Shown here piece after piece: positions 2,843 to 7,301 of a DNA stretch of 9,599 nt. Positions within the stretch are counted from its first letter, which is position 1. Each line of letters starts with the position of its first letter. This stretch comes from a virus (lineage: Duplodnaviria > Heunggongvirae > Uroviricota > Caudoviricetes). The position numbers and the translations under genes are program-made. The stretch spans positions 1 through 9,599 of IMG/VR virus record IMGVR_UViG_2713896901_000003; one strand, written 5' to 3'. Under the pieces are notes generated by a model, which made no database searches, had not been told where the DNA came from, and saw only the letters and a program-made list of their open reading frames with translations.

Positions 2843-2920
2843 TGGATTGATCCAGTAATGACCTCAGAATTCCATCTGGATTTGTTCAGAACGCTCGGTC
2901 TTGCACACCGGGCGTTTTTT
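2843..2920 (+). ncRNA. oop: OOP-like antisense RNA, complementary to the 3' end of cII, with its own intrinsic terminator
   Basis: Plus strand 2843-2920 reads GTGGATTGATCCAGTAATGACCTCAGAATTCCATCTGGATTTGTTCAGAACGCTCGG, followed by a terminator stem CGCTCGGT (2892-2899) pairing with ACCGGGCG (2907-2914) and TTTTTTCTTT (2915-2924). This closely parallels lambda OOP RNA as I recall it. A candidate -10 element, CATAAT, lies at 2829-2834. Confidence 0.6.
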
Positions 2921-3163
2921 CTTTGTGATTCCATCAAGCGCATACTTAAAAGCCCTGCTAATTGGACTGATGTCTGATGCCATTCCGAAAGCACACAAGA
3001 CCGAAGCAATAAACCGCCAGTCCGTTCTGCTTATCTTCGATTCATGACAGCCAATCATCTTTGCCAGACCACGCTGGGTAAGCGTTGACAGGTTGATGAG
3101 TAAATCTGTTTCTGCGCGATCAACGTCACGCTGTGATAGTTTGCTGTAACTTGTTTGTTCCAT
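2864..3163 (-). CDS. cII: CII transcriptional activator, the lysogeny establishment regulator
   Basis: 99 aa. The C-terminus [19 protein letters not shown] matches lambda CII ([17 protein letters not shown]) and the HTH region KSQISR-like motif is present. It sits between cro and O, as in lambda. Confidence 0.9.
3141..3154 (+). promoter_or_regulatory. Putative CII-binding direct repeat, TTGC-N6-TTGT, at a pRE-like promoter directed toward cI
   Basis: TTGC (3141-3144), TGTAAC, TTGT (3151-3154) lie within the first codons of cII. The spacing to the cII start codon (CAT at 3161-3163) is the same as lambda TTGC-N6-TTGC at pRE. There is one mismatch in the second repeat. Confidence 0.4.
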
Positions 3164-3190
3164 TTCTTATGATTTCCAATAGTGAATATT

Positions 3191-3216
3191 ACGCATCTGT
3201 TGATGCGTTTTTTGTG
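3191..3216 (+). terminator. Intrinsic-terminator-like hairpin oriented on the plus strand between cII and cro
   Basis: Stem ACGCATC (3191-3197), loop TGTT, stem GATGCGT (3202-3208), then TTTTT, GTG. On the minus strand the 3' flank is AATATT, which is not a good terminator. Confidence 0.4.
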
Positions 3217-3253
3217 GGGACGAATCATCCCCGACCTGATTGTTTAAAGAGCG
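3216..3253 (-). promoter_or_regulatory. nutR: boxA plus a boxB hairpin immediately downstream of cro
   Basis: The minus strand reads CGCTCTTTAAACA (boxA; 3241-3253), then ATCAGGTC, then GGGGATGATTCGTCCCC (boxB hairpin; 3216-3232). The identical 17-nt boxB recurs on the plus strand at 4948-4964. Confidence 0.7.
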
Positions 3254-3260
3254 GTGTTAC

Positions 3261-3485
3261 TTATGCTGCCTGATTCGGTTTTGGAAACAGGTGTGGCAAA
3301 TCGGGGCGAATTTCGTAAGCCTTGATCTGCCCTCCAGTGGCGTTAACGATGGCGGTAACTTTCTCTGGAGAGACCAACCCGCCTTTCAGCCATTTGTGTA
3401 CTGCTGGCTGCGTTACACCACACTTGTCGGCAAGGCGCTTTTGGCTACCGACAATTTTCAAGGCTCGTTGAATTACTAAATTCAT
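3261..3485 (-). CDS. cro: Cro-like repressor with a small HTH
   Basis: About 74 aa, MNLVIQRALKIVGSQKRLADKCGVTQPAVHKWLKGG..., divergent from cI across the operator region. The ORF track starts at 3506, but that first ATG lies about 1 nt from the predicted pR +1 and has no ribosome-binding site. The ATG at 3483-3485 is preceded by AAGAGGT with proper spacing. Confidence 0.8.
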   Translation of the reverse strand: MNLVIQRALKIVGSQKRLADKCGVTQPAVHKWLKGGLVSPEKVTAIVNATGGQIKAYEIRPDLPHLFPKPNQAA

Positions 3486-3596: not shown

Positions 3597-4304
3597 ATGA
3601 AAACATTCGCAGAAAGACTAAATGCAGCCATGAGCTCAGCAGGTGTGTCGCAATCACAGCTTGCTGACATGGTTGGAATATCTCAGCCAGCCATACAGAA
3701 GATGTCATCCGGTAAAACAAACGGATCTCGCAAGATGGTTGAATTAGCCAATGCTTTAAAAGTACGCCCTGAATGGCTTAGCTCTGGTATTGGTGAAATG
3801 AGGGATGGTACACATGAAGAACCATCCAATGTCCGTGAATCATCTTTAAAAGCTGTGGTATGGGAAGATATTAAAAGAAACGATGACGAGTTTGTCGCGT
3901 TGCCTCTTCTTAACGTTTCGCTTTCAGCTGGAAACGGTAGCTGCGAGCTAGAGGAATCATCAGAGTTCTCTTTGGTTTTCAGAAAGTACTATCTGAAAAA
4001 GATGGGGGTATCTGAAAGATCAGCCAAGCTAGTTAGGGTTGTAGGGCAAAGCATGGAACCAACGCTTCACGACGGAGATGTTGTTGGTGTTAACACACAA
4101 GATACCACAATCAGAGATGGTAAAACCTACGCTATTTGCCAGTCTGATTTGTTACGAGTAAAAACATTAATCGCCACCCCTACATCGGTGATAATCAGAT
4201 CAATAAATCGCGAAGAGTACCCAGATGAAGTAATGGATAGAGATGAATTTCATGAAACCGTAAGGATTATTGGCAGAGTATTCTGGTCGTCTCATAGTTG
4301 GTAA
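3597..4304 (+). CDS. cI: CI-type prophage repressor: N-terminal HTH, C-terminal S24 LexA-like autopeptidase
   Basis: HTH segment QSQLADMVGISQPAIQKM. Candidate Ala-Gly cleavage site in SLSAGNG. Catalytic Ser in GQSMEPT and Lys in LLRVKTL. The ORF track begins at a TTG (3567) that lies inside OR3. The ATG at 3597 gives a 235-aa leaderless product, as for lambda cI transcribed from pRM. Confidence 0.9.
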   Translation: MKTFAERLNAAMSSAGVSQSQLADMVGISQPAIQKMSSGKTNGSRKMVELANALKVRPEWLSSGIGEMRDGTHEEPSNVRESSLKAVVWEDIKRNDDEFVALPLLNVSLSAGNGSCELEESSEFSLVFRKYYLKKMGVSERSAKLVRVVGQSMEPTLHDGDVVGVNTQDTTIRDGKTYAICQSDLLRVKTLIATPTSVIIRSINREEYPDEVMDRDEFHETVRIIGRVFWSSHSW

Positions 4305-4344: not shown

Positions 4345-4641
4345 ATGGAATTTCTGATAGTTTTTGTTGTTGTTTTGGTCATCATTCTTTTTGTTTTGCT
4401 AAGCATTAGCAAAAAGCTATCTCAAATGATTGAACATAGCTCTAATCGCGCAAAAGAAGAAGACCATCTAATTGATATAAAAGAGATTCTCTCTGATATA
4501 AAAATCACATTAGATGAAATAAAATACACAACAGATCTAATTGAACAGTATAAAATACCAACCCCAAACGAAAGAAAAGCAATAGATCAATATCGTATTG
4601 ACTTAGAAATCGACGAAATGCTAAGCAAAAGAAAAGACTAA
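4345..4641 (+). CDS. AT-rich moron encoding a 98-aa bitopic membrane protein: N-terminal TM anchor plus an acidic helical tail. It occupies the rexAB or lysogenic-conversion slot downstream of cI.
   Basis: Strong ribosome-binding site, GGAGGGATAATG. Residues 3-22, FLIVFVVVLVIILFVLLSIS, form a TM helix, followed by KK and a helical tail rich in charged residues. GC content is about 30 %, against about 50 % for the flanks. The gene is 40 nt downstream of cI with no terminator between them, and is followed by a tImm-like terminator. Confidence 0.7.
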   Translation: MEFLIVFVVVLVIILFVLLSISKKLSQMIEHSSNRAKEEDHLIDIKEILSDIKITLDEIKYTTDLIEQYKIPTPNERKAIDQYRIDLEIDEMLSKRKD

Positions 4642-4645
4642 AAAC

Positions 4646-4674
4646 ACCCGGCCTCAGCGCCGGGTTTTCTTTTC
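4646..4674 (+). terminator. tImm-like intrinsic terminator ending the cI-moron transcript; the hairpin is bidirectional
   Basis: Stem CCCGGC (4647-4652), loop CTCAGC, stem GCCGGG (4659-4664), then TTTTCTTTTCC. On the minus strand the same stem is followed by TGTTTTTAG. Confidence 0.8.
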
Positions 4675-4813: not shown

Positions 4814-4880
4814 ACTTATAACTTATTTACCATAAAATATAAACTAAGTTATTGACCACACCTATAACCTAAGTTATCTT
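4814..4880 (+). promoter_or_regulatory. oL/pL: early-left promoter with operators
   Basis: -35 TTGACC (4852-4857), 17-nt spacer, -10 TATCTT (4875-4880). OL1 ATAACCTAAGTTAT (4864-4877) lies between the -35 and -10 elements. OL2 ATAAACTAAGTTAT (4839-4852) is centred 25 bp upstream. A degenerate third site lies near 4814-4831. Confidence 0.65.
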
Positions 4881-4926: not shown

Positions 4927-4964
4927 GCTCTTTAACATTGATGGAATGGGGATGATTCGTCCCC
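4927..4964 (+). promoter_or_regulatory. nutL: boxA-like element plus a boxB hairpin
   Basis: GCTCTTTAACA (4927-4937), then TTGATGGAAT, then GGGGATGATTCGTCCCC (4948-4964). The boxB 17-mer is identical to that of nutR. Confidence 0.7.
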
Positions 4965-5119
4965 ACCAAAGAGAGGTTGGCTTTGGGATTTGATGAATGT
5001 GCAGGTCGATGCACTAACGCTTAGCGGTGAGCACCTGCCTTTGGGGCAGGATGGGTAGCCGCAATCAGGAGATCGACACCTGACATCAAATCACCAAAGT
5101 CAATCATCGGAGGTATCCA

Positions 5120-5326
5120 GTGAAAGCAAGAGAGATTCGCAAACTCGAACGCGCTCGTAAGCACAAAGAGGCGACAGCAAAACGTAAAAATATTGACCGT
5201 GTTTCAATGGTGGTTTCGCTAGCAGGAGCGAATAGGAAGAAGGTTGAATGTGGTTCGTGCTGCCTGCCAAACGTAGCTCTTTACGCAGCAGGCTACCGGA
5301 AATCAAAACAACTGACAGCAAGATGA
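5120..5326 (+). CDS. N: Short 68-aa N-like transcription antiterminator
   Basis: It is the first gene downstream of pL and nutL. It uses a GTG start with a GGAGGT ribosome-binding site. The N-terminus MKAREIRKLERARKHKEATAKRKN is an arginine-rich motif. From memory, the C-terminus CLPNVALYAAGYRKSKQLTAR matches the C-terminus of the N proteins of the H-19B/933W phage group. Confidence 0.6.
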   Translation: MKAREIRKLERARKHKEATAKRKNIDRVSMVVSLAGANRKKVECGSCCLPNVALYAAGYRKSKQLTAR

Positions 5327-6545: not shown

Positions 6546-6649
6546 TACGAATAAGCACTGTGTATTCATTCCAACGAGTGAATACACGGAGCAATGTCGC
6601 TCGTAACTAAACAGGAGCCGACTTGTTCTGATTATTGGAAATCTTCTTT

Positions 6650-6676
6650 GCCCTCTAATGTGAGGGCGATTTTTTA
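6650..6676 (+). terminator. Intrinsic terminator between moron B and the ea10-like gene
   Basis: Stem GCCCTC (6650-6655), loop TAATGT, stem GAGGGC (6662-6667), then GATTTTTTAT. Confidence 0.65.
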
Positions 6677-7115: not shown

Positions 7116-7136
7116 TGTATAAATAAGGAGCACACC

Positions 7137-7301
7137 ATGCAATATGCCATTGCAGGGTGGCCTGTTGCTGGCTGCCCTTCCGAATCTTTACTTGAACGAA
7201 TCACCCGTAAATTACGTGACGGATGGAAACGCCTTATCGACATACTTAATCAGCCAGGAGTCCCAAAAAATGGATCAAACACTTATGGCTATCCAGACTA
7301 A
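7137..7301 (+). CDS. cIII: CIII, the FtsH inhibitor that stabilises CII
   Basis: Translates to [54 protein letters not shown], which is identical to lambda CIII by recollection. Ribosome-binding site AAGGAG. Confidence 0.9.
   Translation: MQYAIAGWPVAGCPSESLLERITRKLRDGWKRLIDILNQPGVPKNGSNTYGYPD

Follow-up and report, generated by a model that had tools for sequence, protein, structure and literature searches.

A stem-loop conserved with a lambdoid nutR cassette and its lineage-specific terminator-like appearance on the antisense strand

Between nutR and cII of this phage lies a short hairpin that resembles an intrinsic terminator on the strand opposite to the pR transcript, which raises the question of whether it belongs to the tR1 region of the pR transcript or attenuates the establishment transcript running from pRE towards cI. 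An earlier note on this DNA had left both readings standing. The analyzed stretch of 9,599 nucleotides (the window) represents the immunity and early region of a lambdoid phage in inverted orientation with respect to the lambda map. Genes were assigned from open reading frames, PHROG matches, an Rfam match, the inverted repeat formed by nutR and nutL, and annotated relatives. On the minus strand, a cro-like repressor gene transcribed from pR (3261-3485; PHROG 35, E = 9e-27; labeled transcriptional regulator or Cro in related records) is followed by cII (2864-3163, 99 aa; PHROG 191 CII-like transcriptional activator, E = 1.1e-38), the start of which is the complement of ATG at 3161-3163, and further in the pR direction by an O-like gene and a DnaB-like helicase gene. 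The plus strand carries cI (3597-4304), the pL operators on the plus side (about 4838-4880), a gene for an N-like antiterminator of 68 aa with a GTG start (5120-5326; PHROG 271 anti-termination protein N-like, E = 5.8e-13) and, beyond it, the cIII thermoregulator, bet and exo.

Several further features of this layout were recorded. The N-like ORF (5120-5326) aligns to positions 105-157 only of the 176-column N-like PHROG profile; it is a short N variant, and its arginine-rich N-terminus (KAREIRKLERARKHK) presumably reads the unusual boxB. At 7124-7182 on the plus strand, the lambda cIII thermoregulator of Rfam (RF01804) is matched over its full length (88.5 bits, E = 4.5e-21); this is the sole confident Rfam match in the window, and no Rfam family was found at 3100-3300. 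A G+C-rich hairpin at 4646-4665, terminator-like on both strands, directly follows a 98-aa ORF (4345-4641) downstream of cI and probably corresponds to t-imm, stopping transcripts of the cI operon ahead of pL. A terminator-like hairpin with a stem of 12 bp and a T-run lies antisense within the 3'-terminal part of cII (2888-2918, plus strand) and was assigned as the oop/tO homologue, because its stem is nearly identical to that of the lambda oop terminator (38629-38602).

The nut sites were then located (positions of nutR on the minus strand). On the pR transcript, nutR consists of boxA CGCTCTTTAAACAA (3240-3253; lambda boxA is CGCTCTTA), the core of which (GCTCTTTA) is invariant throughout the cassette alignment, and boxB GGGGAUGAUUCGUCCCC (3216-3232). 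On the plus strand, nutL (4927-4964) comprises boxA GCTCTTTAACA at 4927-4937 and boxB at 4948-4964. The nutR boxB is confirmed by an inverted repeat of 23 nt (3210-3232 / 4948-4970, 96% complementary), folds in the nutR and nutL contexts alike, and was found as the same 17-mer beside a boxA in 42 viral contigs. With boxA and then boxB after cro, the same boxB at nutL and an N gene present, the site has the composition of a lambda-type nutR. The boxB presumed in the earlier note is real, as its inverted copy at nutL demonstrates, and the N-like and CII-family genes that go with it are present according to PHROG.

In the window, the boxB sequences of nutR and nutL (3216-3232 and 4948-4964) are identical to each other, unlike in sister phages (L004-L044, L279-L288), in which the nutR boxB AGGGAUGUUUCGUCCCU differs at three positions from their own nutL boxB GGGGAUGAUUCGUCCCC. 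Two loci (L013 and L042) carry the G-U intermediate of the outer pair on the pR strand. One nucleotide after the nutL boxB, a hairpin CCAAAG-N9-CUUUGG (4965-4986, plus strand) folds in the window; hairpins of this type are kept in about 40 viral contigs (L004-L045) with variable loops and some stem changes, and lambda nutL has a similar hairpin, CAAAGC-AGAAG-GCUUUG, at the same place. A site of L015 with A7 after boxB was considered as a second nutR without hairpin and rejected, as its orientation and the second site identified it as nutL. An 18-mer scan (boxB plus G) of the genome collection returned unrelated matches in distant phyla only, a 27-mer metagenome scan gave no match, and the plasmid search yielded a cro-side match only.

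A lambda-like CII site had been proposed at 3141-3154, together with a rightward pRE start near 3180. CII-type direct repeats, TTGC-N6-TTGT, are indeed present on the plus strand (TTGC 3141-3144, TTGT 3151-3154), flank the -35 of the predicted pRE within the first codons of cII, and are kept in all modules carrying the cII type of the window. The predicted -10 hexamer TATGAT (3168-3173) lies 13 nt past the second repeat, and relatives carry TAAGAT, TACTAT or TAATAT at this position. The predicted promoter thus combines a poor -35 between the repeats with a lambda-like spacing to the -10 and lies antisense within the start of cII. In lambda, TTGC-N6-TTGC is followed at the same 13-nt spacing by AAGTAT (-10 at 38350-38355; PMC5869508), and the start lies 7 nt after the hexamer. 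Since the CII site and the -10 spacing are identical to lambda, the pRE start of the window is predicted at about 3179-3181, and the proposed promoter is supported by this exact spacing. The hairpin, placed roughly 10 nt past the start in the earlier note, begins 11-12 nt downstream of it by lambda geometry and would span roughly +12 to +29 of the pRE RNA. This lambda-derived geometry is not compatible with a start located past the hairpin. An IHF site and a plus-strand promoter TTGATG-N17-AATCAT were both considered and rejected as weak matches by eye.

The hairpin itself (3191-3208) is a stem-loop readable on both strands, ACGCATC-TGTT-GATGCGT, with a 7-bp stem including four G-C pairs and a 4-nt loop, detected by scanning and by RNAfold. 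It is present in the minimum-energy and centroid structures of both strands and has a moderate stability of -8 to -10 kcal/mol (-9.6 kcal/mol for the hairpin alone). On the plus strand it runs into T6 at 3208-3213, the first T of which closes the stem, and then into G3214, T3215 and GGGG, as the TTTTTT and GTG of the earlier note had it, the stem of 7 to 8 bp given there being 7 bp. On the pR strand it lies just 3' of boxB, separated by a 7-nt linker (3209-3215, minus strand) and followed by the A/U-containing tail UAAUAUUCAC, again as described before. The linker reads ACAAAAA on the pR strand and TTTTTGT on the plus strand and provides the U-tract of the plus-strand terminator look.

To rate the hairpin as a terminator, a d'Aubenton-Carafa-type score was used, which serves as a relative index only. 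The plus-strand motif, which was also flagged as terminator-like by a consensus scan, scored d = +7.4 with the 7-bp stem and +12.6 with a 6-bp stem, while the minus-strand (pR) reading scored -55, its tail containing four U in the first 8 nt and no run. Four motifs as strong occur in the whole window; the other three (4646-4665 and 6648-6669 on the plus strand, 72-49 on the minus strand) are all located at gene ends. When the window was shuffled thirty times with its dinucleotides preserved, motifs of this strength numbered 0.03 per window over both strands. A looser consensus scan was less specific, with 16 motifs found versus 8.8 +/- 2.8 expected. The index is conservative, as the lambda oop terminator and its homologue at 2888-2918 score only about -10, because their stems run into the T-tract. 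The plus-strand motif thus has a stable G+C stem-loop and a U-tract (T6) in the range of about 6-8 nt, and by sequence criteria it is a credible intrinsic terminator. The earlier note had called it a textbook intrinsic terminator; in homologues the hairpin is kept and the U-tract is not.

To follow the element in related phages, sister loci in viral contigs and E. coli were fetched via the boxB sequence. On the pR strand the sister cassette consists of boxA, boxB AGGGAUGUUUCGUCCCU, a 7-nt linker, ACGCAUC-NNNN-GAUGCGU, then A/U-rich sequence and finally the ribosome-binding site of cII. The stem ACGCAUC/GAUGCGU is the same in the window and in the sister cassette, of which 20 or more distinct haplotypes were found. 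Five or more different CII-site/cII types adjoin these haplotypes, including the lambda-like TTGCGTTTGTTTGC, and inheritance of the hairpin thus follows nutR and not pRE. Almost no variation is seen in the stem, while the loop varies among seven or more sequences (AACC, AACA, AAAC, AAUC, GACC, AACG, AGAA). At the same place, L015 carries the unrelated stem ACCACC/GGUGGU and L023 the stem GCGCAU/AUGCGC. The linker is ACAACCA in almost all sister haplotypes, ACAACAA in one and AUAACCA in one, corresponding to TGGTTGT, TTGTTGT and TGGTTAT on the pRE strand. The best plus-strand d-scores of the sister cassettes range from -11 to -34, compared to +12.6 in the window, and none is terminator-like; their pR-strand tails are as poor as that of the window.

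About six positions distinguish the window from the consensus cassette, including two in the linker, where its pR strand has AA in place of CC. The U6 on the plus strand results from these two linker changes, ACAAAAA instead of the ACAACCA of the family. In the nearest relative with the same boxB, E. coli UTME-3, the outer stem pair is lost and the linker is ACAAAUA on the pR strand (TTATTTG on the plus strand), so that the U-tract is interrupted. Ten complete E. coli genomes and 12 viral contigs carry exactly the sequence of the window; as this lineage is near-clonal, conservation of the T-run within it is uninformative on selection, either way. Anatomy, conservation pattern and terminator-like score are plain properties of these sequences, and the fact that the hairpin is conserved with nutR and the U-tract is not favors the reading that the plus-strand look is incidental. 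As a separate observation, three loci with the same boxB (L281, L286 and L287) continue on the pR strand with CUGAAGU-loop-ACUUCAG, then CAG or UAG, and a U5-U7 run. This has the look of an intrinsic terminator at the tR1 position, and a Rho-type tR1 may have been exchanged for an intrinsic one in these phages.

The mosaic structure of the region was analyzed likewise. Homology to a widespread cII module stops at 3188-3191 and homology to the cro module starts at 3233; the 44-nt segment in between is made up of the hairpin, the linker and boxB. The cII type of the window, of a family also found in Stx phages, is joined to at least five different intergenic modules: type A, phage 86-like (TATGCGT-GGAA-ACGCATA); type B, SH2026Stx1-like (ACTCATC-TTTC-GATGAGT, also with an ACCCATC/GATGGGT stem), which occurs in E. 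coli STEC299 with the same cro as in the window as well; type C, the module of the window; type D, 933W/PA28-like; and type E, represented by L078. A hairpin occupies the same place in types A, B and C alike, and only that of type C is followed by a T-run. Plus-strand d-scores of types A, B, D and E and of lambda range from -28 to -58. Twelve of the 74 type-B loci (among L199-L278) carry the haplotype ACGCATC-TTTC-GATGAGT, which joins the left arm of the window to the right arm of type B and has the look of a type B/type C recombinant or intermediate; its G-A mismatch in the middle of the stem is thus tolerated. In type E (L078 and L142) the same cII and pRE are followed by TTTGGTTTTTTATTG without a preceding hairpin, and no recognizable boxA or boxB was found within 130 nt, so these loci may represent a lambdoid lineage that lacks an N/nutR system here. 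A 101-nt query gave no match in a distant BLAST search against phages at the default threshold, while a longer megablast query did match; the null result was treated as a sensitivity or threshold artefact.

Which of the two RNAs the hairpin serves was further addressed by single-sided stem variants, which form G-U in one strand's RNA and A-C in the other's. Four of them favor the pR transcript, three favor the pRE transcript and three to four break both, the type-B haplotype of 12 loci with its internal mismatch included, so that the tally does not separate the strands. Within the ACGCAUC family, the near-invariance of the stem leaves minimal covariation. The sequence around the hairpin on the pR strand is A/C-rich and G-poor (C 10 / G 4 in 30 nt covering linker and hairpin), and C exceeds G in most 30-nt intervals from 3300 to 3200, except across boxB itself. 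The hairpin was assigned to the pR transcript on account of its linkage to the nut cassette across many recombinant backgrounds, this composition, the absence of a conserved U-tract on either strand, and its positional equivalence to lambda tR1; it may have a role in the pRE RNA, too. Taken together, these results suggest that the hairpin is probably the tR1-zone stem-loop of a conserved nutR cassette and that the plus-strand terminator look is a lineage-specific by-product. Thereby, of the two readings offered previously, a tR1 element with an incidental plus-strand appearance is the one favored by a hairpin that travels with nutR and a U-tract that does not.

How such an element would work, with regard to Rho dependence, pausing and termination proper on the two strands, is inferred by analogy to lambda. 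Rho would load onto the pR transcript in the G-poor region surrounding boxB, as in lambda tR1, and the hairpin would mark the pause and release zone and protect the 3' end of the terminated cro message. N bound at boxB would override termination at tR1. A polymerase paused about 10 nt past the hairpin would cover the predicted pRE -10 and start (3168-3181), as in lambda. In the lineage of the window, the linker ACAAAAA would turn the antisense pRE RNA into a hairpin followed by U6, with some constitutive, unregulated loss of pRE transcripts as a consequence. Such loss is plausible, since the polymerase responds to sequence and not to purpose, and some termination is likely given that the plus-strand motif is as good as the terminators at gene ends and rare in shuffles; some pRE transcripts may thus be stopped at about +33 to +36. 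N could not relieve this, because the pRE RNA carries only the antisense of nutR.

A stronger version of this effect is that the window lineage has a genuine, selected pRE attenuator, in which hairpin and U6 end a substantial share of transcripts near +33 to +36 and either lower lysogenization or yield an RNA of about 35 nt antisense to the cII leader that feeds back on cII. The d-score of +7.4 to +12.6, the -9.6 kcal/mol of the hairpin and the U6 agree with it, as does the excess over shuffled sequence (4 motifs of this strength versus 0.03). With 11-12 nt between predicted start and hairpin, the stem would have fully emerged before the U-tract is made, RNAfold revealed no competing structure in the first 86 nt of the predicted pRE RNA, and the lineage persists unchanged in 10 E. 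coli genomes. However, the U-tract is absent from every sister cassette and interrupted in UTME-3, and it occurs in no other module joined to the same cII, nor in lambda. The near-clonal lineage gives no sign of purifying selection on the T-run, the literature searched describes no such element, and neither an antiterminator nor another means of relief is visible, N being unable to act on an antisense nutR. Regulated attenuation of pRE, as raised in the earlier note, accordingly finds no support in conservation, and no antiterminator structure is apparent in the RNAfold prediction for these 86 nt. Judged from the sequences compared, the hairpin is not a conserved attenuator of pRE, and we regard a selected one confined to this lineage as unlikely. 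A related proposal, in which the two-base linker difference made the tR1 hairpin a working, N-insensitive terminator that turns most pRE initiations into an antisense RNA of about 35 nt, is likewise doubtful and is rated slightly lower.

Two other explanations dispense with a distinction between the strands or with RNA altogether. A bidirectional, intrinsic tR1 would end pR transcripts without Rho and pRE transcripts as its mirror image. Some weak mirror symmetry exists on the pR strand, with an A-tract upstream and the A/U-rich tail UAAUAUU downstream, and the three phages mentioned above (L281, L286, L287) show that a pR-strand hairpin with the look of an intrinsic terminator and a U-run can follow the same boxB; but the pR tail of the window, at d = -55 with four U in the first 8 nt, and the equally poor tails of the sister cassettes argue against it, and the tR1 of both lambda and H-19B is Rho-dependent (PMC3526286, PMC4344519), which renders this possibility very improbable. 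Even less credence is given to a palindrome acting in the DNA as the target of a dimeric protein, be it a host factor such as IHF or a phage regulator. Conserved half-sites around a variable 4-bp spacer would also fit an operator, and in lambda an IHF site is located immediately upstream of the ribosome-binding site of cII (PMC5869508). Against this, agreement with the IHF consensus WATCAANNNNTTR is poor by eye, single changes compatible with G-U pairing occur, and related cassettes carry wholly different stems at the same position with paired changes that keep complementarity, so that base pairing fits better than protein recognition.

The reading of a tR1-zone stem-loop with an incidental antisense U-tract mainly documents a conserved nutR-tR1 cassette common to many enterobacterial temperate phages, which is useful for annotation and not surprising. 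It also indicates that a hairpin common to two convergent transcripts can gain terminator character on one strand via changes in the neighboring linker. If the plus-strand motif terminates, less CI would be made from pRE per CII-activated initiation than in relatives, and the lysis-lysogeny balance may shift in prophages of bovine and human E. coli, including STEC backgrounds. Should it be a working terminator in the sense of the proposal above, lysogenization would be lower, possibly with feedback on cII, and the locus would be a natural case in which drift in a neighboring tract has made the stem-loop of a Rho terminator into an intrinsic terminator on the antisense strand.

The lambda dya mutations, which lie in the dyad at this position, affect pRE function. 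The literature searched yielded nothing on dya mutants of lambda, on promoters resembling pRE or on terminators within a pRE leader. A lambda-type nutR-tR1 region with a hairpin in the pRE leader is known, and the unusual detail of the window is the antisense U-tract, which would not surprise specialists unless termination is efficient. Canonical intrinsic terminators and 5'-leader attenuators share with the window a G+C hairpin directly followed by U6 within a transcript leader. Unlike in these, the U-tract of the window is not conserved among homologous cassettes, the stem is short and of moderate stability (-8 to -10 kcal/mol), and neither an alternative antiterminator fold nor a sensor is present.

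Stable stem-loops lacking a U-tract are the typical ends of Rho-dependent transcripts and shield these from 3' exonucleases (PMC6061677). Like the stem-loops of Dar and Sorek 2018 (PMC6061677), the pR strand of the window presents a stable hairpin at the presumed end of the cro message, with more C than G and without a U-rich tail; no A-rich tract upstream of protective stem-loops is described there, whereas an A6 tract precedes the hairpin in the window lineage. In the Stx1 phage H-19B, nutR/tR1 is Rho-dependent (PMC3526286). By its published description H-19B is, like the phage of the window, a lambdoid phage; its nut and rut sites overlap and termination ahead of cII depends on Rho (PMC3526286), as would be the case here, while its boxB and N types differ.

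The closest parallel is lambda tR1. Transcripts are released there about 13, 35 and 68 nt beyond rut (PMC4344519), and RNA polymerase paused at tR1 occludes pRE, which is the main cause of the 5.5-fold interference of pR with pRE (PMC5001618). These pause and release sites bracket the lambda hairpin (PMC4344519, PMC5001618), TGTATGCA-N6-TGCATACA at 38304-38325, which lies between nutR and cII; the hairpin of the window is found in the same position (3208-3191 in the pR direction) and, as is characteristic of a lambda-type tR1, lacks a U-tract on the pR strand. Both hairpins lie past boxA and boxB and upstream of the cII ribosome-binding site, in a G-poor context without a U-tract on the pR strand, and both fall into the first 40 nt of the antisense pRE transcript. 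The stem of the window is unrelated in sequence to that of lambda and shorter (7 bp versus 8 bp), and it is situated nearer to boxB (7 nt versus about 8-25 nt) and nearer to the pRE start (+12 versus +19, the lambda hairpin spanning +19 to +40). Past the hairpin, the pRE strand of lambda continues with CCATAGG and has no U-run, whereas that of the window continues with U6.
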